Source of the DNA: Candidatus Wildermuthbacteria bacterium RIFCSPHIGHO2_01_FULL_48_25
GTDB lineage: Bacteria; Patescibacteriota; Minisyncoccia; Minisyncoccales; UBA10102
Length of the DNA: 40,893 bases
Assembly (NCBI GenBank): GCA_001823155.1
Contig: MHTR01000023.1
Coordinates: 1 to 40,893, forward strand
Direction of reading: 5' to 3'
This document shows, piece by piece, positions 7,579 through 40,078 of the stretch; within the stretch, counting starts at the first letter, position 1; each line of letters starts with the position of its first letter. The position numbers and the translations under genes are program-made. A model generated the notes under the pieces. That model saw nothing but the letters and a program-made list of their open reading frames with translations. It had not been told where the DNA came from and did no database searches.

Positions 7579-7600
7579 TTTTGATACTCGGCAAAAGAAA

Positions 7601-7639
7601 AACGGCCTTCTCCTTTCTTGAAGAAAGAAGAAGGCCGTT
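7601..7639. terminator. Intrinsic terminator hairpin between convergent genes
   Basis: aacggccttctcctttctt-g-aagaaagaagaaggccgtt with A-tract upstream. Confidence 0.8.
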
Positions 7640-7658
7640 TGCCCGATTTGGGCTTTAC

Positions 7659-8453
7659 TTACGAACGAACAAGGACTTCATACACCTCCTTGATGGTGAA
7701 GATGGAGTCGTTTGGCGCAGTCGTCGCAATGACAATCCGTGACCAATCTCCCTCGTCAAAGACAGTCAACCCTTGGGCACCCCTCAATCCGAGAAGCCTC
7801 AGACCCTTGGTTGGGTCTTTGCTTTCGTTATACCCAGGAGGTGGCGCAAGTTCGCGCCATGTCTTCCCCTCGTCAAGAGAGTAGACAGGCCGATGAATGC
7901 CACGGGTGACGAAGAGACTCTCCGGAGAACAGTTCTCGATGCAGGTGTCATCCGACCACAGTGCGACCCATGTATTCCCATGGGCAACGATGTAGGAAAG
8001 ACCACCTGGATGCCATTTCTCTGGAGTGCTCGGGTACAGGTACGGTGCATCGAGCTGCATGGTCGCAAACAGCGTCTCGTTCAGTTCATTCCAGGCTTCG
8101 CTGGAAAGGAACTCGGCCTTTTGGTCCGGGTTCTTTACAAATTCCGAGCCGGGCTTCCAGATCGGTTCTACGATCGGCACTTTCGCCGATGCAACCGACA
8201 ACTCACTTACTGGAACCGGTGCCCGAGAAGGCACTCGAACAATGCTGGACTGCTCACGTGTCGCAGGAACTGCAGAGTTGCGAGCGCCTGCGAACACAAC
8301 GAACAGAACTGCCACTGCTACTGCGAAAACCGCGACTACCAAGAAAGACATGGCGAGTGGAACAATCCTGTCCCACCGCACATTCTCGAGGCGGTGCCGC
8401 GTTGCTTCGACGTGATCCGAAGCAGCAATCTGCTCCCGAATCTGGTCTAACAT
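7659..8453 (-). CDS. Membrane-anchored hypothetical protein with one Asp-box
   Basis: GGAGGT SD before ATG 8453; TM helix; SLDEGKTW Asp-box; TTGACA-18-TATAAT upstream. Confidence 0.75.
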   Translation of the reverse strand: MLDQIREQIAASDHVEATRHRLENVRWDRIVPLAMSFLVVAVFAVAVAVLFVVFAGARNSAVPATREQSSIVRVPSRAPVPVSELSVASAKVPIVEPIWKPGSEFVKNPDQKAEFLSSEAWNELNETLFATMQLDAPYLYPSTPEKWHPGGLSYIVAHGNTWVALWSDDTCIENCSPESLFVTRGIHRPVYSLDEGKTWRELAPPPGYNESKDPTKGLRLLGLRGAQGLTVFDEGDWSRIVIATTAPNDSIFTIKEVYEVLVRS

Positions 8454-8597
8454 TTGGCACCTCCATGCCACTTATTTGGTTATGTACGGAAAATCTCCGA
8501 ACTAATACAATTATATACCCATTTGTACCTATTTGTCAAGATGGCAATTTAGAGCATAAAAAAGAGGGCTGGTTTTGACACCAACCCCCACCTGTGC

Positions 8598-9620
8598 CTA
8601 CTGTTGGATAAGTCCCGCAAGCACGGCGTTCTCCCGAGAGAGGAGATAAACTGTTCTCCCTGAAGGAGAAATGGAATGAATTATCCACTTTCCCTCAATG
8701 AGAACTGTGCTTGACTGCTGGGTTTCCGGCCAGTCGCCAATCACCTTGCCGTCGCCATTGAGATCTTGTAGGACCACAACGTCTCCAAGGTTCTTGAACA
8801 TCCCGTATCCGCTCCGTTCCTGGAGCGCGAAGAACCTATCGGTTTCCGAAATTCTTCCGACCCGCACACTCACCGTCTGAATGCCTACGCTCACCGCACT
8901 AACTGGTTGAGCCATCTCTGCGACGATGCGAAGGGCAGTCGGGATATCTCCCTCTTCCCCAAAATCAACGGCGTAGGAATTCACCTCGATTGCGTGGCTC
9001 TGCACAAGAGAATACGCGTACGCATCCGCCAGTGAACCGTTGAGCTCTCTGCCAACGTAGAGCGTCCCCGGGTTTTGGAAACCTTCTGGTAAAGGATCTA
9101 TGATGTCAGCCATTATGGCGAGCATGCCTCGAGATCCAACCCTGAAAACTCCGTAGTAACCAACACCCCTTGCCTGCGGAGCATCCTTCATCTCCAGGGG
9201 CTTCTCTCGCGCGAGTGTCTTTTCCTGCCCCGAGTAACCTCCAAGGATGTTGAGGTCTGCGATGTTGTCCCCCGATATATCAATCGTGGTTATGGCAACA
9301 AGAGGCAACGGGGTAGAAGTAGGCGTTGGCGAAGAGACAGACGCGGCAGTCACTTCTACGGTTGGCACCTGCGTAGGTGCCGAAACCACGGTTGCTCCAA
9401 CAGCGGTCTCTGTTGGCTGCGCCAGGGCTGTACCCGTTGGAACGAACACCGGCGTTGCCGTCGGCTGCGTCAACACTCCAGCTGTCGACGAAACTACAGG
9501 CGTAGAATCAACAGTTGAAACCGGCTTATCGCCACCACTCCGCATCACGAGAAAAGCTACTCCCACTGCTACGAACGCAACGAACACTCCGGTCAAAACC
9601 ATTAACGCTTTACGGCTCAT
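8598..9620 (-). CDS. Membrane-anchored protein with Thr/Pro-rich linker
   Basis: GGAGG SD before ATG 9620 (MSRKALMV); TM helix, TP-rich stalk, C-terminal DLNGDG motif. Confidence 0.75.
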   Translation of the reverse strand: MSRKALMVLTGVFVAFVAVGVAFLVMRSGGDKPVSTVDSTPVVSSTAGVLTQPTATPVFVPTGTALAQPTETAVGATVVSAPTQVPTVEVTAASVSSPTPTSTPLPLVAITTIDISGDNIADLNILGGYSGQEKTLAREKPLEMKDAPQARGVGYYGVFRVGSRGMLAIMADIIDPLPEGFQNPGTLYVGRELNGSLADAYAYSLVQSHAIEVNSYAVDFGEEGDIPTALRIVAEMAQPVSAVSVGIQTVSVRVGRISETDRFFALQERSGYGMFKNLGDVVVLQDLNGDGKVIGDWPETQQSSTVLIEGKWIIHSISPSGRTVYLLSRENAVLAGLIQQ

Positions 9621-9748
9621 GGGTATCCCTCCCCAATACTGAACCTCGCCAGAACATATAACCCGAGATCCGCCATCCACCAACTGGCAGAGCAGACTTC
9701 TCGTAACTACCTCCAGCGAACCATAAATAAAGTCACCTGTCAATTCCA

Positions 9749-9767
9749 AACTAGGGTTACCCTAATT
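9749..9767. repeat. Intergenic 19-bp palindrome singlet
   Basis: aactagggttaccctaatt between divergent accessory genes; half copy at 9783. Confidence 0.75.
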
Positions 9768-9840
9768 TGGATAATTTGGCGAAACTAGGGTATAGTGTGC
9801 GAAGGGTACAAAAGCACATTACACAAAGAAAGGACAGGCG

Positions 9841-10998
9841 ATGACGACGCTACTGGTCACTGGAGCAACAGGCACTGTTGGCCAAATCGTCGTGCGCCTT
9901 CTCCTTGAGAGAGGACACGACGTTATCGCACTTGTGCGGGGAAAAAATGGAGAAAACGCGCAGGAACGCATGAGGAAAATCGTTCCTGGCGCGGAACGCC
10001 TCACGGTTCTTGAGGGAGACATTTTGGAACCGTTCGCGGGAGTGCGCACCGGAGATATAGCGCAGCTCTACGGAAACGTTCACGGGCTCGTGCACAGCGC
10101 GGCAAGCATTAAGTTCATTGAAACCCCAGACAAACTCGTTCACCGAACGAATGTTGAGGGCACCAAGAACGCGCTGAATCTTGCTTCGGCTCTGCGCATT
10201 CCTGCGATCTGTTACGTAGGCACGGCGTACGCCAACGGAAACAAATCGTTCTGCCTCGAAGACGCAGTGCCGGTTGACCCGCTCATTCAGCGAAACGCCT
10301 ATGAACTTTCGAAGGCACTGGCTGAAAAGCTCGTGCGAGAGTCGGGGATCCCATTCTCCATTCTGCGTCCCGCTATTGTCACGGGTGATTACCACACTGG
10401 ATTCACCCCTGAAGTCAATAGCGGATACGGAGGATGGTTCGAGGTCTTGTTCCGCCATGGTAAAGCGATTCAAAAAGAGTGGAAACAGGACCCCCAAAAG
10501 CTTCTGGGGTCGGGAATTCACGTTGACTCGCAGGGAGTCATTACCCTTCCCATTACCATCAGTGCCACCAAGGTGGGACCACTCCACTTGGTGCCACGCG
10601 ATTGGGTGGGAAGCACGCTAGTCGGATTGATTGAGAGCCCAGTACAGAACATGACGTTCCACCTCACGCATCCGAATCCGCCAAGCGTAAAGTTTGTCAT
10701 TGAACAATCCCTGGAACATCTGGGAATACGCGGTTTCAAAATTGGGTCAAGTGACCATGCGCCATCGGGCCGCGCTGGCGCAATTCAAAGAGTCATACAA
10801 GGACAATTGGCGCAGTTTAACCCCTACACGCGCCAGGACGTTCAAAAGTTTTCGAACTCCAACACCAGAGAAGTGCTGGGACCAAGGTGGGTGGCACCGC
10901 CTCCCATTACTCCCGACTATTTCGCGCGACTTCTCGATTACGCAATTTCCCAAAACTTCGGGCGAGAACGGGAACTTGTGAGCACAGGCAGAACGTAA
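9841..10998 (+). CDS. Extended SDR / thioester-reductase-like NAD(P)-dependent oxidoreductase
   Basis: TGATGTVG Rossmann motif, HSAA, NVEGT, YELSK, LRPAIVTGD. Confidence 0.85.
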   Translation: MTTLLVTGATGTVGQIVVRLLLERGHDVIALVRGKNGENAQERMRKIVPGAERLTVLEGDILEPFAGVRTGDIAQLYGNVHGLVHSAASIKFIETPDKLVHRTNVEGTKNALNLASALRIPAICYVGTAYANGNKSFCLEDAVPVDPLIQRNAYELSKALAEKLVRESGIPFSILRPAIVTGDYHTGFTPEVNSGYGGWFEVLFRHGKAIQKEWKQDPQKLLGSGIHVDSQGVITLPITISATKVGPLHLVPRDWVGSTLVGLIESPVQNMTFHLTHPNPPSVKFVIEQSLEHLGIRGFKIGSSDHAPSGRAGAIQRVIQGQLAQFNPYTRQDVQKFSNSNTREVLGPRWVAPPPITPDYFARLLDYAISQNFGRERELVSTGRT

Positions 10999-11037
10999 GT
11001 TCTGCTTTTTTCTTTGCGGAACTGATATAATATCTGA

Positions 11038-12600
11038 ATGAACGTTTTTGCTCTTTCGGGCATTCTTATTGGAACCACGAGCACTGCCATGGCGGTTTTG
11101 ATGATCCTTATTGGAAAGGAAAAGCTCCACCACATTTGGGGCTTGTTTTGCACGGCTGTCGCGGTGTGGGGGTTTGGCGCCTACCAAATAGCAACCACGA
11201 GTAATATTGCGCAGGCAGAACTCTGGTGGAGAATAACGCACCTCGGAGTTATTTTCATCCCCATTCTGTTCATGCACTTTGTATCAGAGTTCTTAAAACT
11301 CAAAAACAAGCCCTTCATTGTTTCTCTCTATACCCTTGGCTTCTTGTTCTTAGCTCTCAACGCGAAAGGGGATCTCTTCATTGCCAGCATGCGCTGGGTG
11401 TTCAACCAGTTTTACTATGACTCGCCCCCAGGCATTTTCTACATTCCTTTCACTTTCTTTTTCATAGGGTTGGTCATCTTGAGCCATTATATTCTCTGGA
11501 GAGCATTGAGAACCGCAACGGGGTTGAAGAAAAAGCAGATCCAGTATTTTTTCGCGGGCATGCTCGTAAGTTTCGCAGGTGGCAGTTTGAGCTTCCTTCC
11601 TGTGTACGGAATAGATTTTTATCCCATATTCAACCTGTTTGCCTTTCTCTACACCCCTATTCTCACCTTTGCCATTTTGCGAAAACAGCTGTTTGACATA
11701 CGGCTTGTGTTAACCCAGTTCTTGGTAGGAGCCATTGCTATTCTTTTACTCTTCAACTTCTTCACCTCTTCTTCGTTCTTTGAATACGCGTGGAAAGGAA
11801 CTTTATTTGTGGCTTTCTTGCTCGCGGGATACTTACTTATCAAGAGCGTGCTTAATGAGATTCGAATACGTGAGCAATTGGAAGAGGCGCTCACAAAACT
11901 CAAAGAGCTCGACAAAGCAAAGTCTGAATTCCTTTCCATTGCTTCGCACCAACTGCGAGCGCCGTTAACTGCCATTAAAGGATACTTATCCATGCTCATG
12001 GAAGGAACGTATGGAACAGTGGGGGAACAACAAAAGAGGCCCATGCAGAACGTGTATGATTCAAACGAGCGCATGATAAAACTCGTCAACGACTTGTTGA
12101 ACATTTCGCGCATTGAATCAGGAAAGGTGGAGATGAAAATGGAAGAGGGGAGTGTTGAAAAAATTCTGGAGAGCGTGGTGCAGGAACTTCAGGTAAAGGC
12201 GCACGAAAAACGCTTGGACCTGGTATTCGAAAAACCACAAAGTCCTTTATCTCTTTTCCGCTTTGATAAAGAAAAGATGCGCAATGTGGTGCTGAATCTC
12301 GTGGATAACGCCATTCACTACACAGAGCAGGGCAGCGTAAAGGTACAAGCCAGACAAACCGCGCAAAACACGATTATCTCGGTTACGGACACAGGGCTTG
12401 GCATGCGAGAAGAAGAAATAGCGCGGTTGTTCCAGAGCTTTACCAGAGGTGAAACAGGGAACAGGGCATGGGCAGAGGGTTCGGGTTTGGGCCTCTATAT
12501 CGCGAAACAATTCGTTGCTTTGCACAGGGGGAGGATATGGGCGGAGAGCAAAGGACAAGGCAAAGGTTCAACCTTTTTTGTGGAATTGCCTCTGGCATAA
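11038..12600 (+). CDS. Sensor histidine kinase with multi-TM (HisKA_7TM-like) N-terminus
   Basis: ASHQLRAPL H-box, NLVDNAIHYT N-box, DTGLGM, GSGLGL, GKGSTF. Confidence 0.93.
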   Translation: MNVFALSGILIGTTSTAMAVLMILIGKEKLHHIWGLFCTAVAVWGFGAYQIATTSNIAQAELWWRITHLGVIFIPILFMHFVSEFLKLKNKPFIVSLYTLGFLFLALNAKGDLFIASMRWVFNQFYYDSPPGIFYIPFTFFFIGLVILSHYILWRALRTATGLKKKQIQYFFAGMLVSFAGGSLSFLPVYGIDFYPIFNLFAFLYTPILTFAILRKQLFDIRLVLTQFLVGAIAILLLFNFFTSSSFFEYAWKGTLFVAFLLAGYLLIKSVLNEIRIREQLEEALTKLKELDKAKSEFLSIASHQLRAPLTAIKGYLSMLMEGTYGTVGEQQKRPMQNVYDSNERMIKLVNDLLNISRIESGKVEMKMEEGSVEKILESVVQELQVKAHEKRLDLVFEKPQSPLSLFRFDKEKMRNVVLNLVDNAIHYTEQGSVKVQARQTAQNTIISVTDTGLGMREEEIARLFQSFTRGETGNRAWAEGSGLGLYIAKQFVALHRGRIWAESKGQGKGSTFFVELPLA

Positions 12601-12623
12601 CCTAATGATATACTGGCACAAGC

Positions 12624-14042
12624 ATGCAACGAACATTGAGCTCAGAAACGCTTTCCCAAGTTGGGAAAACCGTGAAACTCGCGGGCTGGATACAAACCCG
12701 CAGAGACCACGGCAAAATCATCTTTTTTGACCTTCGGGATTCTGGAGGTATTTTGCAGTTGGTATGCACGCCCCAGGAAAAGGAGGTATATGAGCTCGCG
12801 CAGACGTTGAGATCCGAGTGGGTGGTAGAGGTTGAGGGCGAAGTGAAAGAACGGCCAGACGCAATGAAGAACGCGGAGCTGGCTACCGGAAACGTTGAGG
12901 TAGGAGTGAAAAAGCTTGTGGTGCTCTCTGAAGCCAAAACTCCGCCCTTTCCTATTGATACTCCTGGATACGACATTGATGAGGAAACGCGGTTGAAATA
13001 CCGGTACCTGGATTTACGAAGACCCCGGCTCCAGAAAAACCTCAAACTGCGTTCCGAATATGTGAAAGCGGTGCGCGAATACCTTTTCAGCAAGGGATTT
13101 TTGGAAATTGAAACTCCGCTTTTAACCAAATCCACCCCCGAGGGTTCACGCGACTTTGTAGTTCCAAGCAGAGCACAGCCTGGAAAGTTCTACGCACTTC
13201 CTCAAAGCCCTCAGCAATACAAACAACTGCTCATGGTTGCCGGGTTTGAAAAGTATTTCCAGATAGCGCGGGCTTTGCGCGACGAAGACCCCAGAGCAGA
13301 CAGGGGATTTGAGCACAGCCAGGTAGACTTGGAAATGAGTTTTGTGGGAATGGAAGACGTCATGAACGTGGTGGAAGAGATGACCGTGTTCGCGGTGGAG
13401 AAAATCGGAGGGAACATAGCAAAAAAACCGTTCCCTGTGTTTACCTATGAAGAAGCAATGAAACAATTCGGGGCAGACAAGTTTGATTTGAGAACCGAAC
13501 AAGAAAAGAAAGAGGGGATACTGAGTTTTGCCTGGGTTGTGAGCTTTCCATTCTTTGAAAAAGACAAAACAGGCAAATGGACGTTCACGCACAACCCGTT
13601 TTCAGCTCCTTTGAACGAAGAACATGAAGCAATGCTTTTGAAAGGAAAGGATATTGAGAAAATCATAACTTCGCAGTATGACCTGGTGTGCAACGGTCTT
13701 GAGGTTGCAGGAGGAAGCTTGAGAACGCATAAGCCCAATGTGCTGAGAGCAGTGTTCAAAACAATGGGGTACAAAGAACAGGAGATCGAGGAACAGTTCG
13801 GGCACATGCTGGAAGCATTCTCACACGGCGCTCCTCCGCACGGCGGATGCGCGCAGGGATTTGAACGACTACTCATGGCATTCCTGGGAGAGGAGTATCT
13901 GAGAGAAGTACAGGCATTTCCCCAAACAGGCCAGGGAAGAACCTCTGTTATGGATGCACCAAGCGAACTGTCTGAAGCGCAATTGAAAGAACTCCACTTA
14001 AAGGTGCAAAACCCTTCGACTAAACTCAGGGCAGGGAAATGA
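12624..14042 (+). CDS. aspS: Aspartate--tRNA ligase (short form lacking GAD insertion domain)
   Basis: RRDHG, YRYLDLRR, LPQSPQQYKQLLM, RDEDPRADR, APPHGG. Confidence 0.96.
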   Translation: MQRTLSSETLSQVGKTVKLAGWIQTRRDHGKIIFFDLRDSGGILQLVCTPQEKEVYELAQTLRSEWVVEVEGEVKERPDAMKNAELATGNVEVGVKKLVVLSEAKTPPFPIDTPGYDIDEETRLKYRYLDLRRPRLQKNLKLRSEYVKAVREYLFSKGFLEIETPLLTKSTPEGSRDFVVPSRAQPGKFYALPQSPQQYKQLLMVAGFEKYFQIARALRDEDPRADRGFEHSQVDLEMSFVGMEDVMNVVEEMTVFAVEKIGGNIAKKPFPVFTYEEAMKQFGADKFDLRTEQEKKEGILSFAWVVSFPFFEKDKTGKWTFTHNPFSAPLNEEHEAMLLKGKDIEKIITSQYDLVCNGLEVAGGSLRTHKPNVLRAVFKTMGYKEQEIEEQFGHMLEAFSHGAPPHGGCAQGFERLLMAFLGEEYLREVQAFPQTGQGRTSVMDAPSELSEAQLKELHLKVQNPSTKLRAGK

Positions 14043-15025
14043 CAAAGAACACCTTCTACTTTTTCGCGGCGTTCCTCTTGAGTATGCCTTTGTTCATGGG
14101 CATGAATACTGTTTCAAGCACCATTGAAAACACCTACTTTTTAGCAGAACTCTCCAAAAACCCCGAGGTGCTGGCAGCAACAACCGCAAACGCAGTGCTC
14201 CAGAGCGCTTTTTTTGAGGAACAGCCGTTTCGCAACACGTCAGTTCCTTTAACTGAAGTTTCTGCAAAGGCGGCGTTCTCCTTGTTTGTCAACAAACAGG
14301 GGAATACGAATGTGCTCTTTGCCAAAAACCAGCACGAGGCCCTTCCCATTGCGAGCTTAACCAAGTTGATGACTGCTTTGGTTGTTGAAACGTATTATCC
14401 ACAAGAAGAAATAATCACCATAACCAAAGAAGCCATACAAAAAGAAGAAAACACAGGGAACTTCAATATTGGAGAGCAGTTTTTGGTAAAAGACTTGCTT
14501 CGCTCTCTTTTAGTTGAATCATCCAACGACGCCGCAGCTGCCTTTGCCCTGCAGTGGGGACGGGAAACCTTTTTGCACGCAATGAATGAAAAAGCGGAAC
14601 AGCTTTCACTCGAACACACCTCGTTCGTAGACGAAGCAGGGGTAGACCCCAACGAAGGAGAACTCATAAACCGCGCAACCGCAAAAGACCTGGCTGAACT
14701 TTCCCGCTTTGTCATGGAAAACCACCCTGAAGTGTTTTCACTCTTGAGTATGACGTCTGCCGAATTGAGAACAGCTGAGGGAAAACTGCACCACACCGTG
14801 AAAACAACCAATGATTTATTGATTTCGAATGGTTGGGAGACAAAGGTGCTGGGAGGAAAAACCGGCTGGACCCCCAAAGCAAATGGATGCCTGCTCTTGA
14901 TCCTAGAGTCACCCGACGGAAAAGGATACCTTGTAAACGTTATCCTGGGGGCCCAAGACAGGTTCGCCGAAATGAAAACCATGGTGAACTGGGTATTTGA
15001 CGCATACGAATGGAAACAACCATGA
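14039..15025 (+). CDS. D-alanyl-D-alanine carboxypeptidase (peptidase S11)
   Basis: SxxK (ASLTK), SxN (SSN), KTG motifs; N-terminal anchor. Confidence 0.92.
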   Translation: MTKNTFYFFAAFLLSMPLFMGMNTVSSTIENTYFLAELSKNPEVLAATTANAVLQSAFFEEQPFRNTSVPLTEVSAKAAFSLFVNKQGNTNVLFAKNQHEALPIASLTKLMTALVVETYYPQEEIITITKEAIQKEENTGNFNIGEQFLVKDLLRSLLVESSNDAAAAFALQWGRETFLHAMNEKAEQLSLEHTSFVDEAGVDPNEGELINRATAKDLAELSRFVMENHPEVFSLLSMTSAELRTAEGKLHHTVKTTNDLLISNGWETKVLGGKTGWTPKANGCLLLILESPDGKGYLVNVILGAQDRFAEMKTMVNWVFDAYEWKQP

Positions 15026-16122: not shown

Positions 16123-16140
16123 GTTAATGGAAAAGTAAAA

Positions 16141-31970: not shown

Positions 31971-31972
31971 CG

Positions 31973-32041: not shown

Positions 32042-32068
32042 TGCCCGTTCCTTTTACGGGCTAAAGAA

Positions 32069-33205
32069 CTAGATGCGCCCCTTCCGATCGGCGCCAATGC
32101 CGCTTGGCATTCTGCCGCCTGCGTAGCTGTTGCTCAGCTGATCCCAGGGGATCTGGGAGCCGAGCATGTACAGGGCACCGAAGTACTGGAGCTCTTCGTT
32201 GCCCGCCGGCTGGTCCTTGACGCCCATGATAGAGAGGACGAAACGCGTCAGGTTGTTCTCGAGCCGTGGGTAGGTGGCTGAAACCGCCACTCCCAGCTGC
32301 TTGAGCATCTGCTCGCGATTCGCGGCGCCGATCATGCCGGGCAATCGAGGGTTCTCCAGAGCTTCCTTGACCTTGACTGCGTCGTAGGCGAGGGCGGCTG
32401 CGATCTGCACGCCGGTTCCCGCGAACACCCTATTGATGGCATCTGCGACTGCGTCAGCATGGTCGCGCAGCACTCCGGTTTCTGGCGGCGATATCATGCC
32501 CGGAGGTATGACGTTCCCGCCACCAGAGCTGGCCATGAGAACGCTCATCATCATGGCCGGATTCGCAGCACCCTGCATCCAGGCCGACTGCCACGAACGC
32601 AGCTGCTCAAAGAAGGCGGCGATCGCGGGCCAGAGATGTTCGTCAACTCGGCCGAGCAACTGCTTTCTCCTGGTCTCGGTCACGTAGTTGCCGTCGAAAC
32701 CCTCGAGGGCCTCGAAGATCTCGGCGTAGTTGCGGCGCGTCATGTCTCGGCGAAGCTTGAAGAACGCGGGGTCAACCTGTTCGTCGTTCTCGTCGGCGAA
32801 TCGTTCCATGGCCTTCACCAGAAGGTTAAGAACATCGAAGAGTCCCACGCGAGACGCAAGCGCCGCGCGAACCGCCGAGATGACACTCGACTGGTCAACC
32901 TTGAGAACACCTCCGGCCTTGAGCGCCTCGAGCCACGAGCTGTCGCTCGGAACTGCCGGAAGCACCGCATCGAACGAAACAGCCACTGCGGCTGTTTCGC
33001 TTGCGGGCCGGGCCGGCGCGAGTGCCGAGACCAACTTCCTTGCCGGCAGCTTTTTCATTCCAGCTGCAACAAGATCGTCCTCGGTCAAGCCGGCCAGATC
33101 TTCCACTGTCGAAGCGCCCAGGTCTGTTTTGATCTTTTCGATCACGTCAACCGGCACGCCTAGTTCCTCCAGCCTGCTCTTTACCTGGTCCGTATCTACT
33201 GCCAC
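32069..33205 (-). CDS. Hypothetical protein with N-terminal SAM-like domain
   Basis: LEELGV...VEDLAGLTEDDLVAAGMKKLPARKLVSAL resembles a SAM domain; GGAG SD; last gene of operon. Confidence 0.75.
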   Translation of the reverse strand: MAVDTDQVKSRLEELGVPVDVIEKIKTDLGASTVEDLAGLTEDDLVAAGMKKLPARKLVSALAPARPASETAAVAVSFDAVLPAVPSDSSWLEALKAGGVLKVDQSSVISAVRAALASRVGLFDVLNLLVKAMERFADENDEQVDPAFFKLRRDMTRRNYAEIFEALEGFDGNYVTETRRKQLLGRVDEHLWPAIAAFFEQLRSWQSAWMQGAANPAMMMSVLMASSGGGNVIPPGMISPPETGVLRDHADAVADAINRVFAGTGVQIAAALAYDAVKVKEALENPRLPGMIGAANREQMLKQLGVAVSATYPRLENNLTRFVLSIMGVKDQPAGNEELQYFGALYMLGSQIPWDQLSNSYAGGRMPSGIGADRKGRI

Positions 33206-33220
33206 TGTCGCTCTCCTTCC

Positions 33221-34606
33221 TTACCTGCACACCTTGTCTTGCTCGGTTGGTCCGAATGAAACCATTCGGACTGGCACTCCCAATGCTCCATTGAGAACGT
33301 TTGCGCAGAGCGAGTATAGCTCGTCGCGCCCGGCCTCAGACGGAATCTCGAGAGTGGTGACTATGGGCTTAGAAGCCAAAACCTGCTTACCCAAACGTTC
33401 CTGGTACTCGAGGTGCTCTTCGTCTTCTCCTCCTTTGACGTTCAGCGCTCCCTTCTCTGTGAAGTACTCGGGATTCTCGGCGTTCGCGTAGCGATCGCAA
33501 AGATCCCACCTTTTATTGGCCATGATCTGGTCGAACCAGGTAACAGCCAACCCGTTGAAGGCCTCTGAACCTCCGCAGGCCTCTATGGCGTAGCGGAGCA
33601 GAACAAGATCAAGGGGGCCAACGCGCACTTTTCCTTGGTACCGGTTCTCTTCTTTGTGGCTGCCAGGCAGCAGGCTTTCGGCCATAGCTGCGTCTGCAGT
33701 TGGAAGAGGCCCGGCACCGTGGCGAATGGCGTAGGCCCGGAACACACCGATGCTCACCGTTTCTTCGCCATATCCAGCCTCTCTGAGCATTGCTTTTGCA
33801 AAGCGCGGCAGCGTTCGGATTGCGCTGGTATGGGGGTGGAAACCGCGGTAGCGATCCGTGAGCACCCCATGCGAGCTTTCGACCACGACCACGCCGTCTC
33901 GAGAAAGGATCTCTCGCTCGAGATACTCGCGGTCAACGATCGTAGCTTGCCGGGATACTTCTTTGAATTGCTCCGCGCAGTAGCTCAGGAAGTCGTCGTC
34001 GTACAGACGGCCGACTTCCAGTTTTACCTGGTGAAGGTCATGAGGAAGAAACTCAGGGATCATGCTTGTGGTGTCGCGCCGCACCTGTTCTCGAATTGCA
34101 ACAAGCCGGTCTCTGATATCGAGCCGCGAAAGGTCGCGAACCCGAATCGTCAAACCTGGGTGCCGCTCCGAATAGCGATACGCCTCACCTACTCCTGTGC
34201 CGATCGTACCGCGGGGGTTCTTGCCCCGCGCCATTTCTTTGAGGCGCGAAGCAATCCCGTGGTACGGCGTGGCACAGAGCACGTCCCTGTCTACCGTGAG
34301 CATGCTGAAGGGATCGTGAATCCCGTGTTCGTACCGAAGCGCGCTGGCTTCGTTCAGCAAACCCACAGGGGAAGCCACCATGCGAGGAGAAAGATACGTC
34401 CTTACTCCTTCGAATGTGCCACAGCCCCATTGGCTGAATGCAAAGCGTTCACCCCTTGAGGTGCAAACGCCGTGGCTTCCCTGAGCTCCTCCGACCTTCA
34501 CAACGGTGTGGGCACGCATCATTGTTGTGATTTTGTGCACCACACCGCCTTTGCCGCCGTCACCCGGACCAAGATCGGTGACGGTGTATACTTTTTTCAC
34601 CGCCAC
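33221..34606 (-). CDS. Divergent adenylosuccinate synthetase (PurA-fold) protein
   Basis: DLGPGDGGKG, GGAQGSHG, GTIGTGVGEAY, VESSHGVLTD, RAYAIRHGAGPLPT, RVGPLD, LAVTWFD, VSFGP colinear with PurA motifs. Confidence 0.88.
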   Translation of the reverse strand: MAVKKVYTVTDLGPGDGGKGGVVHKITTMMRAHTVVKVGGAQGSHGVCTSRGERFAFSQWGCGTFEGVRTYLSPRMVASPVGLLNEASALRYEHGIHDPFSMLTVDRDVLCATPYHGIASRLKEMARGKNPRGTIGTGVGEAYRYSERHPGLTIRVRDLSRLDIRDRLVAIREQVRRDTTSMIPEFLPHDLHQVKLEVGRLYDDDFLSYCAEQFKEVSRQATIVDREYLEREILSRDGVVVVESSHGVLTDRYRGFHPHTSAIRTLPRFAKAMLREAGYGEETVSIGVFRAYAIRHGAGPLPTADAAMAESLLPGSHKEENRYQGKVRVGPLDLVLLRYAIEACGGSEAFNGLAVTWFDQIMANKRWDLCDRYANAENPEYFTEKGALNVKGGEDEEHLEYQERLGKQVLASKPIVTTLEIPSEAGRDELYSLCANVLNGALGVPVRMVSFGPTEQDKVCR

Positions 34607-34620
34607 CTCTCATCTCCTTC

Positions 34621-35742
34621 CTAGAGCCACTTGGGCCCTTCGGGGTCGCCGCTTTCTTCCGAAGGCGCGCCCTCTGAATCGACTTCGCTCGGGTCGATCG
34701 GCCAGACATCGGTCTTTTCCCTGAACAGATCACCCTTTTGCGGCCGCTTGCCAAAGTTGGGCAGAGCTGCCTGGGCGCCTATGGGGATGTTGGCGACAGA
34801 ACGCACGATCCTTTTCGCGTCGTCCCTTTCAACGTTGTTTTCCTGGAGGAACTCCTCAACACTGCTAAGGTCGAGAGTTCCTTCGGTAAGGCCGATGATC
34901 GCAGCCTGCACCTGGGGCAGAAGCTCTGTGCTTGGCAGAACGACCACGCGCTCTGCGCCGAACACTCCTGTCCAGAACCGCGTTGTACTCGGGGCGTCTC
35001 CGACCTGCAGGAAAAAGGCGTGCGCCCGTTTCAGCAGGTCCTGGACAACCTCCATCGTACTCGGCAGGTCACGGGAATCCACCTTGTGGCCGTTCTCGGC
35101 CACTTTTTCGAACACCTCGGGACCGAAAATGCGGCGGAGCTGACTCTCGTCGAGCCAATCGCGGCCCGGCGCGTCCGACACCGTAAAGTCGTACCCCTTG
35201 AGGTCGATCCGAACGATGTACACAGCAGTCAAGAAAGCAGCGCCGAACAATCCATAATGCGGATCTTCGGGCGCATCGCCGCCTGCCCGTTCGGGAACCA
35301 TGAGCGTAAGCTGTTCAACGATTTTTTCGGCCACCATCTCGAACTGCGGCCGGCACAGAACGAACCTGTCTCCTACGTCGCCAAAGATCCCGATCGCGCT
35401 CTGAAGATCGTAGCCAGGCAGCACGCCGCTGCACAGCTCGTAGTCTTTCGGCAGAACGCGAAGGGCAATGTCAACATTGCCACCCATGCTGCCGGTTGTG
35501 TCCACGCGAACTTCTTTTGGTATTGGCGTGCCAACCGTGAGAACCCAGAGGCCGTCTGCTCGCTTTTCGAGTCGCGGCAGCGATCGGCGGATCACGCCGT
35601 AGCCTGCCGGATCGACAAGCGGATTCAACGTGCCAGTTTCACGGGCTACTTGCTCTGCCCGGAACGTCGCGGGGCCACTCTTTGGTACGAATGTTTCAGC
35701 TGCCAGCGAGTAGGCTTCGCGCGAGAACGTTCTCTTTCCCAT
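34621..35742 (-). CDS. vWA-domain protein
   Basis: MIDAS-like VDTTGSM, IFGD, GGDAPED, VSDAP. Confidence 0.8.
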   Translation of the reverse strand: MGKRTFSREAYSLAAETFVPKSGPATFRAEQVARETGTLNPLVDPAGYGVIRRSLPRLEKRADGLWVLTVGTPIPKEVRVDTTGSMGGNVDIALRVLPKDYELCSGVLPGYDLQSAIGIFGDVGDRFVLCRPQFEMVAEKIVEQLTLMVPERAGGDAPEDPHYGLFGAAFLTAVYIVRIDLKGYDFTVSDAPGRDWLDESQLRRIFGPEVFEKVAENGHKVDSRDLPSTMEVVQDLLKRAHAFFLQVGDAPSTTRFWTGVFGAERVVVLPSTELLPQVQAAIIGLTEGTLDLSSVEEFLQENNVERDDAKRIVRSVANIPIGAQAALPNFGKRPQKGDLFREKTDVWPIDPSEVDSEGAPSEESGDPEGPKWL

Positions 35743-35744
35743 GG

Positions 35745-36572
35745 TCAGTTCTCCTCTTCATTCCTCAACGGTTTAGTGGTGAATGGATGGTACTTGCGCT
35801 CCCAGAGCGCATCGACCAATGCGTAGAACTCCTTGTGTGCTTGTTCTGCGTCTCGCATGCCTCCTCGTGCCAGATGTAGGACGAAATCGGTATACGCCTT
35901 GGTGCTGTTGTCTGGGAATGTGCCTGTTTCCAGTTCACCTCCCAGCACGACAACAACCGCTTGGGCGGCTTTTGAGATCTGCAAACTCTGCGTTTCTCTT
36001 GGGACCGCTTCGGGAAATACCTGCGCTGTTGACCAATCGAAGATCAGCACATAGTGCAGCTTCGGCTCGATCAAGACGTTGTTCCCGGTCGCTTCAATGG
36101 AGAATCCCTCACTGAACGCAAATACGAGCAGTTTGAGAAGTTTCCCCATGATCCACGCGCTGGTGCGCTCGTCAACACGAAGCCTGTCTTTGGCCGTGAT
36201 GTTGCTCAATGGCACCATGCTCCTCACATCCCCTACGTTCCTAAACGCAAGGATGTTGATGTGCCGCGCTCCCTGTTCTTGGGAAACGAAGCTGTCTACA
36301 AGTTCGGGAAACCCGAGCTTGTAGTTAAGCATGGCTTCGGGATCCTTCTTCACACGCGCGTACTCTTCTTCAAGCTCATCAGCATAGCGCTCAAGCTCTT
36401 TTAGAACGTAGGCTGTGCGCTGAAGACCGCCGTTGTTAGCTGTCGCAAGCGCAATCTGCAAAAGGCACTGACTCCCTGCTTCGTCGCGGCAGAGGTAGAG
36501 CCGGTAGGTACCGGTCTCTGCCACCTGCTTGCCGACTTGGTATAGGTGAAAATCGTTCCGTATTTCTATCAC
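35745..36572 (-). CDS. Protein-kinase-fold protein, probably catalytically degenerate
   Basis: YQVGKQVAETGTYRLY, CLLQIA, FPELVDSF, NNVLI, LIFDWS; GGAGG SD before GTG 36572. Confidence 0.7.
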   Translation of the reverse strand: MIEIRNDFHLYQVGKQVAETGTYRLYLCRDEAGSQCLLQIALATANNGGLQRTAYVLKELERYADELEEEYARVKKDPEAMLNYKLGFPELVDSFVSQEQGARHINILAFRNVGDVRSMVPLSNITAKDRLRVDERTSAWIMGKLLKLLVFAFSEGFSIEATGNNVLIEPKLHYVLIFDWSTAQVFPEAVPRETQSLQISKAAQAVVVVLGGELETGTFPDNSTKAYTDFVLHLARGGMRDAEQAHKEFYALVDALWERKYHPFTTKPLRNEEEN

Positions 36573-36725
36573 GAAATTCCCCTCCGCTTGACTCTTTTCC
36601 AGATATCTATTGTCAAGGTTCAGCAGCAAAACCCTACCAGTTTTGTATTAAATTGTCAAGGTTCGCCCGGGCTTCAAAGAAGTCCAGGCGGCTAACTCCC
36701 GGTCAGACGTCCGAACTCCTTTAGA

Positions 36726-37406
36726 TCAAAGAAATTGAAAGAACTCTGTTTGCCTTTTCGCAAACTTGTGGAGTGCCGCAGGCCTGTTTGCCCCTCCCCT
36801 CTTTTCTCCTCCAGTAGGCCGTACCAGGTTGAGCGCGAAAAGCTTCTTCCGGAAGTTGCGCTTGTCAAACTTCTTTCGCAGCACAACTTCGTAAACTTCT
36901 TGCAGTTCGCCTAAGGTAAATTGGGGCTTCAAGAATCCTTGGGCTATAGTGGAATACCCAAGCTTTGCCTCAAGACGCTCCAAGCCCTTTTTCACGATTT
37001 CGTTGTGATCGTATGCAAGGTTGAGAAGGCGTTTTGCATCTTTCCAGTATACTTTTCTCGCATTGAGGCTTTTGGAAATTGCTTCTGGAGAAACTAACAC
37101 AAGATATGCCACAGATACCACCCTGCCTCTTGGGTCGCGATTGACCGAACTGAACGTGTACAACTGCTCGATATAGGAAGGGACAACGCCTGTCTTGCCT
37201 TTTAAATGGCGGCGAACCGACGCATCGGCGGTTTCATGGGGGCGTATCAAACCGCCAGGCACGCCGAGCATATGCTTATAAAAAGGTGGTATATGCACAT
37301 CGATCAAAAGAACCTTGAGAATTTTTTCGTGAATAGTAAAAATGACCACGTCGGTGGCTAAGACCGCGAAGTGGAGTTCTTTGGTACTTGGCTTCTTTCG
37401 TTTCAT
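36726..37406 (-). CDS. NrtR-family regulator (Nudix-like plus winged HTH)
   Basis: ATDVVIFT, PGG, EQLYTF..RDPRGRVVSVAY, LAYDH, FTLGELQEVYE, DKRNFRKK, RPAAL; Nudix box degenerate. Confidence 0.92.
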   Translation of the reverse strand: MKRKKPSTKELHFAVLATDVVIFTIHEKILKVLLIDVHIPPFYKHMLGVPGGLIRPHETADASVRRHLKGKTGVVPSYIEQLYTFSSVNRDPRGRVVSVAYLVLVSPEAISKSLNARKVYWKDAKRLLNLAYDHNEIVKKGLERLEAKLGYSTIAQGFLKPQFTLGELQEVYEVVLRKKFDKRNFRKKLFALNLVRPTGGEKRGGANRPAALHKFAKRQTEFFQFL

Positions 37407-37411
37407 TATAC

Positions 37412-37433
37412 TTAGTGTATAACTATACACGAA
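37412..37433. promoter_or_regulatory. Candidate NrtR operator (autoregulatory)
   Basis: TTAGTGTATA-AC-TATACACGAA palindrome overlapping TTGACA-18-TACACT promoter of the NrtR gene. Confidence 0.65.
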
Positions 37434-37520
37434 GTGCTGTCAAGAGCTGAAGAAATAAAAGCGGGCGGGGAATGGTGGTAAACCATCCCAGCCCGTTTGT
37501 TTGCTGGCCGAATCCGTTGT

Positions 37521-38327
37521 TCAGATAACGTTCTCGTGCCGCAGGAACACCTCTGTTTCAGAAATAAGCCATTCCTCGTGGCCCTTGAACTGGTGATCTC
37601 CACGCGGCGTGATGCGCACGTCTGCCCATATATCGAGATCACCGAATTTCTCCGACAACTCATACGGTATCACCTCGTCATTCCTACTGTGAATGACGAG
37701 CGTGGGAGTCGTGAAGCTTGTTGCAAGAAGAGACTCGAGGCGATCCCACTGCCTTGTGTCTTCCATATCGTCCCAGGTTCGGGTTTGGGGCTTGCCCCGC
37801 CTTAGGTAACTTACCTCGCCCATTTCCCGGAACGAGGCCTCGTTCACTCCCACTTCTGCGATGCGAGTGAGAAACCGCGCGTAGTTGCCCCATGCAGGCG
37901 CCACGAGAATACACGCGACAACCTTACGCACGGCAACCTTACGAAACTGGCGAGTTGCTGCCCACGCAAAGGAAACAAATGCTCCCCTGCTGTGCCCCCA
38001 GAGAACGACTTTGCCGTCTTCTGGCACAAGGGTCTGGATCACGAGATCCAAGTCGACGCGACTCTGGGTAATGGTCGCGTCGAGATGGGGCTCGGAGTCG
38101 CCGTCTTCGTCGCGCAGATCGAATGCTGCGAACGACCAGCCCAACCGTTCAGCAAGTTCGCACAAATGGGCCCAACGAGCGCCCTTGCGCTTACTCTGCG
38201 AGTGTCCCCCGTGAACACCAATCATCCAGTGCTCGAGGTCTCGCCGGTCAACGGTCGCGGCAAGCCTGGTGTCTCCGCTTGTAATCCACTCGGGCTCACG
38301 TTGAGCGTACTCCTGAACGTTTACCAA
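37521..38327 (-). CDS. Alpha/beta hydrolase
   Basis: GVHGG, GHSRG, HSRNDEVIP, GDHQF; TTG start at 38327 after AAGGGGG (longer ORF overlaps the divergent gene). Confidence 0.8.
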   Translation of the reverse strand: MVNVQEYAQREPEWITSGDTRLAATVDRRDLEHWMIGVHGGHSQSKRKGARWAHLCELAERLGWSFAAFDLRDEDGDSEPHLDATITQSRVDLDLVIQTLVPEDGKVVLWGHSRGAFVSFAWAATRQFRKVAVRKVVACILVAPAWGNYARFLTRIAEVGVNEASFREMGEVSYLRRGKPQTRTWDDMEDTRQWDRLESLLATSFTTPTLVIHSRNDEVIPYELSEKFGDLDIWADVRITPRGDHQFKGHEEWLISETEVFLRHENVI

Positions 38328-38456
38328 TCTATCCCCCTTTTGTAAAACCACGTCGTGTGCTACTGCAACAGAAATACCACGTTTATTGCTATAAGTCAAC
38401 TCTTGTAAAAACTGGAGATATGGGGTATAGGAATCATGCAAAGGAGGATAGCTGCT

Positions 38457-39029
38457 TTGACAATTACATTCAAGAACCTCGACGAAGAAAGCACACAACT
38501 GCTCTACGACTTTTGCGTAGGAGTTTACCTCGACGGAGAATGTTACGCGTTTGCCGTCGCGCTCCAACAAAATCTTGATTGGCCCATAGTAGGCCTCACA
38601 CACGGGGGAACCATACGCCACGCACTTTTGCAAAGACCTGATGGAGGCCTGTTTGACGCACGCGGCCCGATAAAGAGCAAGGATGTCGGCAAACCCTTTG
38701 GCGTGCCGCCTCCCTACGATCTGAAACCGGTAAAAGAAAGTGACCTAAGGAAGGTCAGGCCGATACAGGAATTGAGCATTGCGCGGGCTTTGGACGTTGC
38801 GCAAAGATTGTGGCCCGATCTTCCCTGGAAAAACGGAATGCGCGAGCGTGCGCGCAGATTCGCAGAAGCGCTTGAGGTATTGAGTCGGAGGCACGGCATC
38901 TGGATTCGGGGCAAAGTACCAGCAGCGCCGCCAGTACTGGTGCTTGCACAAGGAGACGAGGCAGGGTATGTTCTTTCTCCCACTCTCGGTAATCCTTCAA
39001 TCTGCACTCTGGACCAAACACTCGCTTGA
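38457..39029 (+). CDS. Hypothetical protein with papain/transglutaminase-like Cys-His-Asp pattern
   Basis: GECYAFAVAL, RHAL, LFDARG; AAGGAGG SD before TTG 38457 (alternative ATG 38436). Confidence 0.7.
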   Translation: MTITFKNLDEESTQLLYDFCVGVYLDGECYAFAVALQQNLDWPIVGLTHGGTIRHALLQRPDGGLFDARGPIKSKDVGKPFGVPPPYDLKPVKESDLRKVRPIQELSIARALDVAQRLWPDLPWKNGMRERARRFAEALEVLSRRHGIWIRGKVPAAPPVLVLAQGDEAGYVLSPTLGNPSICTLDQTLA

Positions 39030-39039
39030 TGCTTCACTG

Positions 39040-39105
39040 CCGGGAGACACCACAATCTCCCGGCCTTTTTATTGAAATAAAAACGGCGAGTTGAAACTCA
39101 CCGCC
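39040..39105. terminator. Back-to-back terminators
   Basis: gccgggaga/tctcccggc+ttttt att (plus); ggcgag../ctcaccgcc with aaataaaaa (minus). Confidence 0.8.
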
Positions 39106-39123
39106 TTGTCGAACCGAGAACTA

Positions 39124-39765
39124 TCAGGGGTGCTCAGCGCGGCTAATGTGCGTAACCACTATTCTGGTCATTCGCGGCACATGCCGGGCCACTTCTCTTA
39201 CAGAGGCCTGTACAGGTTCTGGTAGGCGTGTCAGAGCTTTTTTCCCTTCCCGAATGCGCTCTTGCCGCAAGTTGCACACCCGCCCGGCAGAAGAATCGGC
39301 AAAGCCGGTGTCAGGGTTGTGCCATTTGTCTGCGAAGCGACTCTCCGACGACCGGGGCAAAAGATTCCTCATCATTGCCCCGAGGAAATCCGCGTCAAGC
39401 TTTTCACGGTTCTTCCCGACCGCCTCCCAAAGTGCTTCCCAAAGGATTTCTTCGATATCCGCCTCTGAACCAAATCCTTTCTTGGGAATCACTGGCCAGG
39501 TATCTGCGAACGCCACAATCATGGCGCCTGCTATGCATGTGTACGCCCACGGCCGCCGGACCGGACACTTTCGGTGACCGATTCCCGCAACAACTAGTGC
39601 TGCCACACAGTTCCGCTCAAATTCCCACTCGGGCCAGCGTACTCGATGCATTTCTTGGTAGCTGTGTATGGATTTGCGGCCGAACCATTGTTTATATTCA
39701 GAACTTGGCCCTGTATGAGCAGGATAACGCGGAAGTTCCAGTTTGTTCTCGGCTGTTAAGACCAT
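39124..39765 (-). CDS. Orphan protein in cassette
   Basis: GGAGG SD before ATG 39765; TTGACG-17-TACTGT promoter. Confidence 0.65.
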   Translation of the reverse strand: MVLTAENKLELPRYPAHTGPSSEYKQWFGRKSIHSYQEMHRVRWPEWEFERNCVAALVVAGIGHRKCPVRRPWAYTCIAGAMIVAFADTWPVIPKKGFGSEADIEEILWEALWEAVGKNREKLDADFLGAMMRNLLPRSSESRFADKWHNPDTGFADSSAGRVCNLRQERIREGKKALTRLPEPVQASVREVARHVPRMTRIVVTHISRAEHP

Positions 39766-39851
39766 GTCTACGGCCTCCCTCCCTATTTTCCTTTCCACTC
39801 GCTACTGCCTAAACAGTATCGAATTCTCTTGTCTTCGTCAAGCGCCGAATG

Positions 39852-39880
39852 TTGACAGTATAAGCTACTTCTAGTATACT
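39852..39880 (+). promoter_or_regulatory. Near-consensus sigma70 promoter
   Basis: TTGACA-17bp-TATACT. Confidence 0.85.
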
Positions 39881-39886
39881 CTTTTC

Positions 39887-40072
39887 AGCGTCGAGACGGC
39901 CATCAAAAAGAGTCTGGACAACTCGGCTCATCTCGTACCTCAGAGGTCTGGCCTCGGAATTACTCCGAACGCAAGCAGGTTGATACTGTGCACGGAGTCA
40001 GCCCTCCGTTCCAGGTCAGGCCCTCTGAAAAGTCCATACCGTCTCAATTATCTGGGTTGAGACGGTTTTTTA
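39887..40072 (+). ncRNA. Candidate structured small RNA (~185 nt)
   Basis: Strong promoter, 5' gagacgg complementary to 3' ccgtctc, internal hairpins, terminator accgtctcaa/ttgagacggt+T-tract, no SD-led ORF. Confidence 0.5.
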
Positions 40073-40078
40073 TTTCTC

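Follow-up and report, generated by a model that had tools for sequence, protein, structure and literature searches.

The window analyzed here is the entire contig MHTR01000023.1 (40,893 bases) of Candidatus Wildermuthbacteria bacterium RIFCSPHIGHO2_01_FULL_48_25, whose genome (514,678 bases, 23 contigs) is 82.5% complete. Scattered among its conserved genes are small units, most of which comprise a single open reading frame (ORF) with its own promoter and terminator. An earlier note on this DNA took these units to be cassettes of an undescribed gene-shuffling system in which promoter and terminator ends act as recombination boundaries, which, if true, would have been a major find. Our analysis upholds the description of self-contained accessory genes that are not fixed in relatives, but not the role assigned to their ends. 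The units are accessory genes located between conserved genes, and they are quite probably ordinary transcription units built around horizontally acquired or fast-evolving genes at permissive sites between operons. This reading draws on the motifs and unit structure, a conserved gene backbone, the accessory status and composition of the units, differing cargo in relatives, and one presence/absence variant. It suggests that, where a genome is very small, foreign or new genes arrive in the form of insulated one-gene units that occupy operon seams, even within the cell-wall cluster, and that this cargo is lineage-specific. It also carries a caution, which is that the sharp edges formed by promoters and terminators in a compact genome are not to be read as recombination sites.

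Gene names were assigned by profile matches to Pfam and NCBIfam, and the backbone was examined by tblastn comparison of the window proteins with about 40 kb around murG in the genomes of 10 relatives (11 segments). The gene order kept in these relatives is HisK (11038-12600), AspS (12624-14042), the D-Ala-D-Ala carboxypeptidase DacA (14039-15025), MraY (15010-16122), a MurL-like protein (16141-17484), MurD (18002-19264), FtsW (19230-20360), MurG (20357-21481), GltX (ORF 21684-23186, with the relatives' alignment beginning at residue 26, about 21759), an 83-amino acid (aa) protein, and a Xer-type tyrosine recombinase (gene 23576-24550 within a plus-strand unit spanning 23485 to 24568). RarA (28123-29271), a cold-shock protein gene (27824-28021), and a DUF167 gene (25097-25309) lie nearby in some relatives only. 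The same backbone order recurs in 80 metagenome loci retrieved with GltX (best identity 66%), among which MurG is found in 72, FtsW in 57, Xer in 49, and MurD in 46. No match to any window protein lacking a family, nor to anything to the right of Xer, was found in these 80 loci. The closest relative (75% MurG identity) is represented by a 3-kb contig and the closest by GltX shows 66% identity, and therefore synteny is compared at the level of gene order.

The intervals between these conserved and syntenic genes differ in content among relatives. Gaps longer than 250 nucleotides (nt) separate MurL from MurD in 8 of 26 relatives or metagenome loci, MurG from GltX in 9 of 72, and FtsW from MurG in 4 of 61. 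Such gaps are rarer between DacA and MraY (2 of 24), MraY and MurL (1 of 21), and MurD and FtsW (1 of 45), and none occurs between AspS and DacA (0 of 18). Save for three pairs, the inserted ORFs are mutually unrelated, and none resembles any window protein. The closest relative carries an unrelated 162-aa unit between FtsW and MurG, where the window has none. Thus, the earlier note's ordinary alternative, in which relatives have the same genes fixed in place, does not describe this region, because the cargo differs and a variant has been seen at the strain level.

Many of the relatives' inserts, including those from other genera, have a hairpin followed by TTTTTTTATT and then an extended -10 element before the downstream backbone gene. 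Because relatives from other genera carry the same tail, a T-run with one A appears to be a style of the whole group. When the MurL-MurD gap is short in relatives, the extended -10 is still immediately 5' of murD, and it is therefore reasonable to propose that murD has a resident promoter and that foreign units sit between the murL stop codon and this promoter. In one relative (G001), the MurL-MurD gap of 211 nt holds a tRNA-like gene recognized by eye, with a terminator and then a restart promoter after it. If this candidate is a true tRNA gene, the seam also accommodates RNA genes.

The accessory status of the units is likewise evident from their distribution and composition. The proteins termed hyp204 and hyp118 and a nucleotidyltransferase-domain protein are each found in 0 of 35 other genomes of the family, and hyp202, hyp270, and a PurA-like protein are each found in 1 of 35 (hyp270 at 31% and the PurA-like protein at 30% identity). 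These genomes are 74-100% complete, such that a miss is not proof of absence, and MurG is present in 17 of 18 family genomes. Mean GC content is 46.5% for 18 backbone genes versus 54.4% for 16 orphans. For example, hyp128 (55.6% GC) is flanked by murL (41.7%) and murD (43.3%), and its sole match among 5.8 billion proteins is itself; hyp202 reaches 58.8% GC. Database spread ranges from 14 homologues for hyp204 to 320 cluster representatives for hyp118 and 2202 homologues for hyp202.

All 12 TTGAC sites listed in the earlier note are present on the strand given there, and all 11 listed TTTTATT sites are found within 2 nt. The TTGAC pentamer alone is not enriched (95 observed versus 96.95 ± 9.59 in shuffled sequence), whereas TTTTATT is (15 observed versus 8.04 ± 2.30, a count that none of 100 shuffles attained). 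There are 37 complete promoter-like sites in positions 7000-26999 and 28 in 21000-40893, versus 18.2 ± 4.1 and 12.2 ± 4.0 expected from shuffling. Corresponding values for terminator-like sites are 46 versus 26.0 ± 5.5 and 44 versus 25.3 ± 4.9. The units have -35 and -10 hexamers spaced by 16-18 nt and located 5' of the gene, as in sigma-70-type promoters, and a GC-rich hairpin plus T-run at the gene's 3' end, as in intrinsic terminators; these motifs presumably act as promoters and terminators. Most accessory units close with a hairpin and then a T-run interrupted by one A (TTTTTATTT type).

Among the 12 listed TTGAC sites, 8 are paired with a -10 element that passes our scan, with scores of 9-12 of 12. 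Eleven units score 10-12 of 12 on their hexamers, namely those of hyp270, hyp128, hyp204, Xer, hyp202, the cold-shock gene, the nucleotidyltransferase, an NrtR-like regulator, a small zinc-ribbon unit, and the units starting at 26708 and 39852. Backbone genes share this promoter type, as the Xer and cold-shock genes score 10 of 12. The reported overlap of a -35 box with the end of the upstream gene holds for murL (17474) and rarA (28126) but not for murG, which has no TTGAC at its end; the nearest promoter-like site there is TTGCCA-16-TAATAT at 21420. Genome-wide, the density of strict promoter matches in intergenic DNA (46 sites in 35.0 kb) is 13.1 times that in coding DNA (48 sites in 479.7 kb) on a crude ORF map. 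There are 157 terminator-like sites in the genome, including 20 with a TTTTATT tail, of which 12 are on other contigs. The contig is therefore rich in promoter/terminator units but not unique.

We propose that each accessory gene or small RNA would be supplied with a sigma-70-type promoter of its own (TTGACA, 16-18 nt, TAnnnT, in many cases directly preceded by TG or GT), with a ribosome-binding site, and with an intrinsic terminator in which a single A breaks the T-run. This compact genome of about 0.5-0.6 Mb (those of relatives span 0.3-1.1 Mb) has hardly any spare DNA, and the terminator tail abuts the next -35 box or a neighbor's stop codon. This scarcity would explain the sharp unit edges. 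Accessory genes would settle where insertion is tolerated, which is at the boundaries of conserved units such as that between the murL stop codon and the resident murD promoter. Turnover of these genes, itself evident from the data, would proceed by generic recombination, either as homologous exchange via conserved flanks or as illegitimate insertion and deletion, rather than site-specifically at the signals themselves.

The nearest described frame for these units is that of core-gene hotspots. Many gene-gain hotspots between core genes contain no mobile-element genes and have flanks that show homologous recombination (Oliveira, Touchon, Cury, Rocha 2017, PMC5635113). The window resembles the variable genes in syntenic core described there, likewise without an integrase or transposase specific to the spot. 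The spots here differ in holding one gene and 0.4-1.6 kb, and some are internal to operons in the mur/dcw cluster; the likeness is judged from gene content and order. As for ordinary monocistronic units, the same -35 and -10 elements at 16-18 nt, Shine-Dalgarno sequence, ORF, GC-rich hairpin, and T-run are found, and the window units differ only in that the T-run usually includes one A and that several -10 elements end just 6-9 nt ahead of the start codon.

Several observations weigh against ordinary transcription units and lend some support to the model of the earlier note, in which a dedicated system moves promoter-to-terminator modules whose boundaries are the -35 box and the hairpin/T-tail. 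Near-consensus promoters (at least 10 of 12) are biased toward accessory units, which account for 9 of 11 in the region scanned. The strict promoter pattern is found at 0 of 34 tRNA and tmRNA genes, although several have near matches. The contig makes up 7.9% of the genome yet holds 8 of the 20 TTTTATT-tailed terminators, 24 of the 157 terminator-like sites, and 16 of the 94 strict promoter matches. Of the relatives' inserts, 6 of 28 (5 independent) begin with a strict promoter no more than 40 nt past the stop codon of the preceding gene. Furthermore, a 32-nt stretch comprising a terminator tail, -35 box, and spacer occurs twice (26992-27023 and 29733-29764; 94% identity), with the former copy having lost its -10 element, and a 20-nt terminator hairpin is exactly duplicated in neighboring units (29309-29328 and 29766-29785). 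Some junction DNA has therefore been copied locally. Finally, a strain variant described below drops exactly two whole units, and its left breakpoint is 1 nt past the TTTTATT that ends the hyp204 terminator. All these features would be expected of a cassette system too, but each also follows from compaction together with selection for insulated expression.

Other evidence makes the dedicated system extremely improbable. The junction motif that it would share is absent: in 18 promoter regions aligned on the -35 box, information is confined to the -35 box, a G/T just 5' of the -10 element, and the -10 element, and all columns upstream of the -35 box hold 0.5 bit or less. A 6-nt box plus variable hairpins would seem too little for site-specific recognition. 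When 23 spacer segments were compared by BLAST with the whole genome, no shared unit ends were found save for the 32-nt stretch, the 20-nt hairpin, and families of hairpin repeats. None of the units was seen at more than one locus.

Strain-level joints offer a more direct view of the breakpoints. Metagenome runs bearing this organism derive from groundwater and soil, and runs X1-X8 contain 58-98% of its sampled words. Four runs, each from a different study, supplied contigs that were aligned to positions 17400-37399 at 85% likeness or more, a level at which joints may derive from other organisms or repeats; the parts of this stretch that are uncovered in runs X9 and X11 are uninformative. The best-supported joint links 26671 to 27766 with 17 other letters inserted and 30-34 nt aligned per side, and it is present in three studies, in runs X3 (depth 16.8), X7 (4.93), and X11 (4.75). 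Missing from these contigs are positions 26672 to 27765 (1094 nt), which hold the ORF-less unit starting at 26708 and the hyp202 unit. Because the joint contigs align only partly within hyp204, they come from a diverged relative rather than the same strain. The right breakpoint at 27766 is 19 nt beyond the hyp202 -35 box and just ahead of the terminator of the cold-shock gene, such that all DNA between two flanking terminators is gone.

Two further joints can be read. In X3 (depth 10.3), 21483 is joined to 21732 with 3 letters inserted, and thus the 248-nt non-coding murG/gltX spacer (21484-21731) is missing. Neither end has TTGAC or TTTTATT, and the left breakpoint falls at the stop codon. 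Also in X3 (depth 4.3), 24572 is joined to 25099, which skips a 106-nt repeat and a 76-aa unit and has its ends at two palindromes. The breakpoints that the earlier note expected at the motifs are therefore unrelated to them in two of three readable joints, and in the third only the left end is as expected. A joint from 29272 to 27776 reflects the fact that relatives, as in G001, have the cold-shock gene upstream of rarA, and it shows nothing more. Joints from 24568 to 26966 and from 22671 to 30035 were discounted; the sequence at 26965-26988 is itself a hairpin that recurs on C14, C21, and C22, and a repeat artefact or another organism could be the source of these joints.

The earlier note saw no transposase, terminal repeats, or attC sites in the window. 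An attC-like shared site is indeed absent, whereas a Xer recombinase, palindromes, an inverted pair, and the 106-nt repeat are present. The recombinase is the sole one that could serve a dedicated system. It scores 234 bits as XerC and 232 bits as XerD, both under the model cut-offs, and only 110.6 bits against the integron integrase model TIGR02249 (cut-off 265). Xer keeps its position after gltX in relatives, and we read it as a probable housekeeping enzyme for dimer resolution. Integron cassettes resemble the window in being small one-gene modules in series with a tyrosine recombinase gene nearby. However, integron cassettes are mostly promoterless and attC-ended, whereas the units here end in unrelated hairpins (save one duplicated terminator), are located on both strands, and have their own promoters rather than a common one, and the recombinase is Xer-like and syntenic.

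The pdif modules of Acinetobacter plasmids are gene modules flanked by inverted XerC/XerD sites. They are similar to the window units in that the modules are small, the cell has Xer, and one inverted 28-nt pair (25068-25095 and 26905-26932) encloses 1.8 kb that includes the genes for DUF167, a hydrolase, and hyp204. The 11-6-11 layout of pdif sites is not found, as the palindrome centers here measure 1-5 nt. Also, the inverted pair encloses DUF167, a backbone gene, and there are only three copies, all on this contig.

These palindromes form the basis of another explanation, in which dispersed hairpin repeats (ACTWRG..CYWAGT palindromes and the 106-nt repeat) mark the sites of gain and loss, acted on by a hairpin-recognizing enzyme or by repeat-mediated recombination. 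Copies of the palindrome ACTAGG-N5-CCTAGT number 5 in the window, versus 0.04 expected, and 13 in the genome, where a wider palindrome scan finds 39, of which 15 are inside ORFs on the crude map. All five window copies are at junctions (9750, 17950, 24552, 25074, and 26910), and three of the five sit between a backbone gene and an accessory unit. The joint from 24572 to 25099 ends at two palindromes and has a half palindrome among its 16 intervening letters, and the copies in frame inside genes show that insertion takes place. However, this joint was seen in a single run, at low depth and 85% likeness, and may stem from a repeat elsewhere, while the best-supported joint is not at palindromes. 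Most unit boundaries lack a hairpin repeat, and no enzyme is linked to these repeats, as the one small GIY-YIG gene of the genome has different ends. Consequently, we regard a role for the hairpin repeats in gain and loss as unlikely, and favor generic recombination around ordinary transcription units.

The repeats are nonetheless a distinct component of the window. The multi-copy short palindromes and the 106-nt foldback, located in spacers and in frame and with compensatory changes, resemble repetitive extragenic palindromic (REP) or miniature inverted-repeat transposable element (MITE) sequences, which likewise occur as several dispersed foldback copies. They differ in that the repeats are not the unit boundaries proposed in the earlier note and the 106-nt family hardly occurs outside this genome. 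The 106-nt repeat (24566 to 24671, minus strand) is a Y-shaped structure with a long stem and two inner hairpins (folding z-score -9.06), and it is one of six genome copies that share 89-92% identity (the others being G000 C5:16689-16794, C6:14747-14852, C7:15686-15792, C13:32811-32916, and C22:91-196). Among 43 predicted pairs, 10 have compensatory changes, and a covariance model gives a weak match in 1 of 40 relatives. One arm, GGTGTGGATAA, bears some likeness to a Xer or DnaA site, but such a reading is undermined by the presence of six copies. A tie between this repeat and the GIY-YIG gene (C6:5805-6005) was considered and rejected, given that their inverted ends differ and lack similarity.

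Several palindromes have additional features. The 21-nt perfect palindrome AAACTAGGGTTACCCTAGTTT is the left arm (25068 to 25095) of the 28-nt inverted pair. The 21-nt perfect palindrome AAACTAGGGTWACCCTAGTTT is present three times in the genome, only on this contig (9748-9768, 25072-25092, and 26908-26928). Two of the copies make up the 28-nt inverted pair, and two are directly upstream of -35 boxes. It might serve as an operator for a regulator, and an NrtR-like gene is encoded on the same contig. In-frame perfect palindrome pairs of the AAACTTGGCCCGnCCAAGTTT type are found in murD (18660-18714) and in the gene at 231-1235 (385-435 and 980-1031), and further in-frame palindromes are found in murL (16318-16334 and 16553-16573). 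The pair in murD encodes residues 220-238, a loop at which relatives have gaps or unrelated residues. A further dispersed repeat, with the motif ACTTCG...CTCAGTGCCTTCGGCC, is located 3' of several tRNA genes and the tmRNA gene elsewhere in the genome (G000 C6:21285, C6:32843, C13:35097 for tmRNA, and C14:15122).

A different possibility is that the window's right half (roughly 24.7-40.9 kb) consists of one or a few large islands from a single higher-GC donor that retain donor-style signals. GC content is 51-59% from 26 kb on, compared with 44-49% in the mur region, and the TTTTATT terminators are concentrated in the right half. Counter to this proposal, backbone genes of normal GC content (DUF167, cold-shock, and RarA) are interleaved with the units, and hyp128, hyp270, and hyp383 lie far to the left. 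Furthermore, relatives have the same tail style, and the phyletic spreads of the units differ greatly, from an orphan without other matches through 14 homologues and 320 representatives to 2202 homologues. A single donor is therefore very unlikely.

The largest of these spreads belongs to hyp202 (27078-27686, minus strand), a secreted protein of 202 aa with DxDxDG-like motifs. Its 2202 homologues, with up to 80% identity, are found in many bacterial phyla and in some archaeal bins. In species genomes, proteins 57-79% identical to hyp202 are present in candidate-phyla bacteria, Chloroflexota, Actinomycetota, and others, including on contigs of 127-443 kb, while hits on short contigs are possibly mis-binned. 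For comparison, MurG identity within the order is 49-63%, apart from the one relative at 75%. Of 36 genomes of the family, 2 contain hyp202, and its context differs between them. The gene is solitary and has its own terminator in 52 loci examined, with any given neighbor common to at most 3 of the 52, and no pattern of mobility genes is seen among these loci. This arrangement speaks for a system of promoter-to-terminator modules. However, nucleotide similarity to 70 loci is confined to 27084-27586, within the coding region, and never reaches the promoter or terminator, which counts against that system. We conclude that hyp202 is a frequently transferred solitary gene, and that the ends of the transferred DNA are not visible at such divergence.

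Perhaps the units, hyp202 among them, belong to a pool of autonomous one-gene modules that are exchanged among unrelated groundwater microbes by an unknown route, without a mobility gene in the module, and inserted at transcription-unit boundaries. Terminator-type hairpins or dispersed palindromes might serve as entry points. The existence of such a pool is doubtful, and its best example would be hyp202 given its cross-phylum identity, solitary arrangement, presence in 2 of 36 family genomes, and absence from the contigs of co-occurring relatives. In any case, this small secreted protein deserves attention as one that has no assigned function and is unusually widely shared across phyla. It has no match in Pfam or NCBIfam, no usable match in Atlas, and no hit at E ≤ 1 in a profile search of PDB, and its AlphaFold model is poor (mean predicted local distance difference test score 60.3; predicted template modeling score 0.43). 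Among viral contigs, a scan with the single protein found none, and a scan with an alignment found one weak match (35% over residues 11-105).

The individual units conform to the general description given above. On the left, the hyp270 unit (7600 to 8539, minus strand) has the promoter TTGACA-18-TATAAT (8539>8510), an ORF for a membrane-anchored 270-aa protein (7659-8471), and a terminator with a 19-bp stem (7600-7640). Adjacent is the hyp383 unit (8564 to 9743, minus strand), with TTGACA at 9743, an ORF at 8598-9749 whose start is likely further in, and a terminator at 8564-8589. The hyp128 unit occupies the murL/murD interval (17474 to 17947, plus strand), and its promoter TTGACA-17-AATAAT overlaps both the murL stop and the hyp128 ATG. 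The ORF (17501-17887) is followed by a terminator (17917-17938 plus TTTTTATTT). Beyond it (17949 to 17991) are a copy of the palindromic repeat, AACTAGGCCTCGCCTAGTTATCCAC, and then the extended -10 element TGCTAAAAT located 5' of murD.

To the right of Xer, a small unit (24704 to 25055, minus strand) has TTGACT-16-TAAGAT, a 76-aa ORF (24768-24998), and a terminator (24712-24737 plus TTTTTATTT). The hyp204 unit (25939 to 26670, plus strand) has TTGACA-17-TATAAA, AAGGAGG, an ORF at 26015-26629, and a terminator (26637-26661 plus GTTTTTATT). The hyp202 unit (27017 to 27747, minus strand) has TTGACA-17-TAATAT and a terminator (27026-27049 plus CTTTTTATTT). The cold-shock gene, which is part of the backbone, has a comparable unit (27780 to 28126, minus strand) with TTGACA-17-TAGTAT over the rarA stop and its own terminator. 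Next to RarA is the hyp118 unit (29300 to 29754, minus strand; TTGACT-16-TACACT), with its ORF at 29335-29691 and terminator at 29309-29328. It is followed by a zinc-ribbon-like unit (29758 to 30169, minus strand) with two small ORFs (29935-30117 and 29775-29987, or shorter) and a terminator at 29766-29785. Divergent from the promoter of the latter is the unit of the 563-aa nucleotidyltransferase-domain protein (30177 to 31996, plus strand). Further along, the hyp197 unit (38436 to 39073, plus strand; terminator 39039-39064 plus CTTTTTATT) is back to back with the hyp224 unit (39075 to 39841, minus strand; terminator about 39084-39103). Bidirectional terminators and back-to-back divergent promoters thus both occur in the window.

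The earlier note assigned an orphan ORF to each cassette. Most units do have one gene, but the ORFs proposed at 24770-25078, 26742-26894, and 29705-30085 look spurious. In their place are the minus-strand 76-aa ORF, an ORF-less unit, and the two small zinc-ribbon-like ORFs, respectively. The ORF-less unit (26708 to 26935, plus strand; about 190 nt) has TTGACA-17-TACAAT and ends at the palindrome 26908-26928. A second such unit (39852 to 40075, plus strand; about 150 nt) has TTGACA-17-TATACT and a terminator at 40038-40066 plus TTTTTATTT. Both are candidate small RNAs, with folding z-scores of -4.83 for the 39852-40075 unit and -3.71 for 26742-26935. Rfam searches with these two units and the 106-nt repeat returned only chance-level rows, and a DNA search with 39850-40075 found no match in 30 relatives.

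Other genes in the window that could be named by family encode a serine hydrolase, the nucleotidyltransferase-domain protein, the divergent PurA-like protein, the NrtR-like regulator, an alpha/beta hydrolase, and a CAP-domain protein; all remaining window ORFs match no family in Pfam or NCBIfam. The window has no Rfam match at E ≤ 0.1 and no tRNA genes, and PADLOC found nothing above noise for 10 accessory proteins. Gene orientation switches near 25 kb, and the cumulative GC skew peaks locally at 24 kb but also declines over 0-12 kb, so that the signal of a replication terminus is not clean.

One exception to the one-gene organization is a four-gene operon (32008 to 36659, minus strand) with a single terminator (32016-32041). 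Its genes (32069-36629) have 52-61% GC within a genome of 48% GC, and PADLOC gave no match for them. Its PurA-like protein is a very divergent relative of adenylosuccinate synthetase (83 bits versus a cut-off of 402), and we read the 294-aa protein (hyp294) as possibly kinase-like. The companions of these two are proteins of 373 aa (hyp373) and 378 aa (hyp378).

A last observation concerns the spacing between promoters and genes. The best -10 element ends 1-9 nt ahead of the annotated start for HisK, AspS, MurD, RarA, the 83-aa gene, hyp294, and NrtR. Such short distances suggest mRNAs that are leaderless or have very short leaders, or else start codons that have been set incorrectly.

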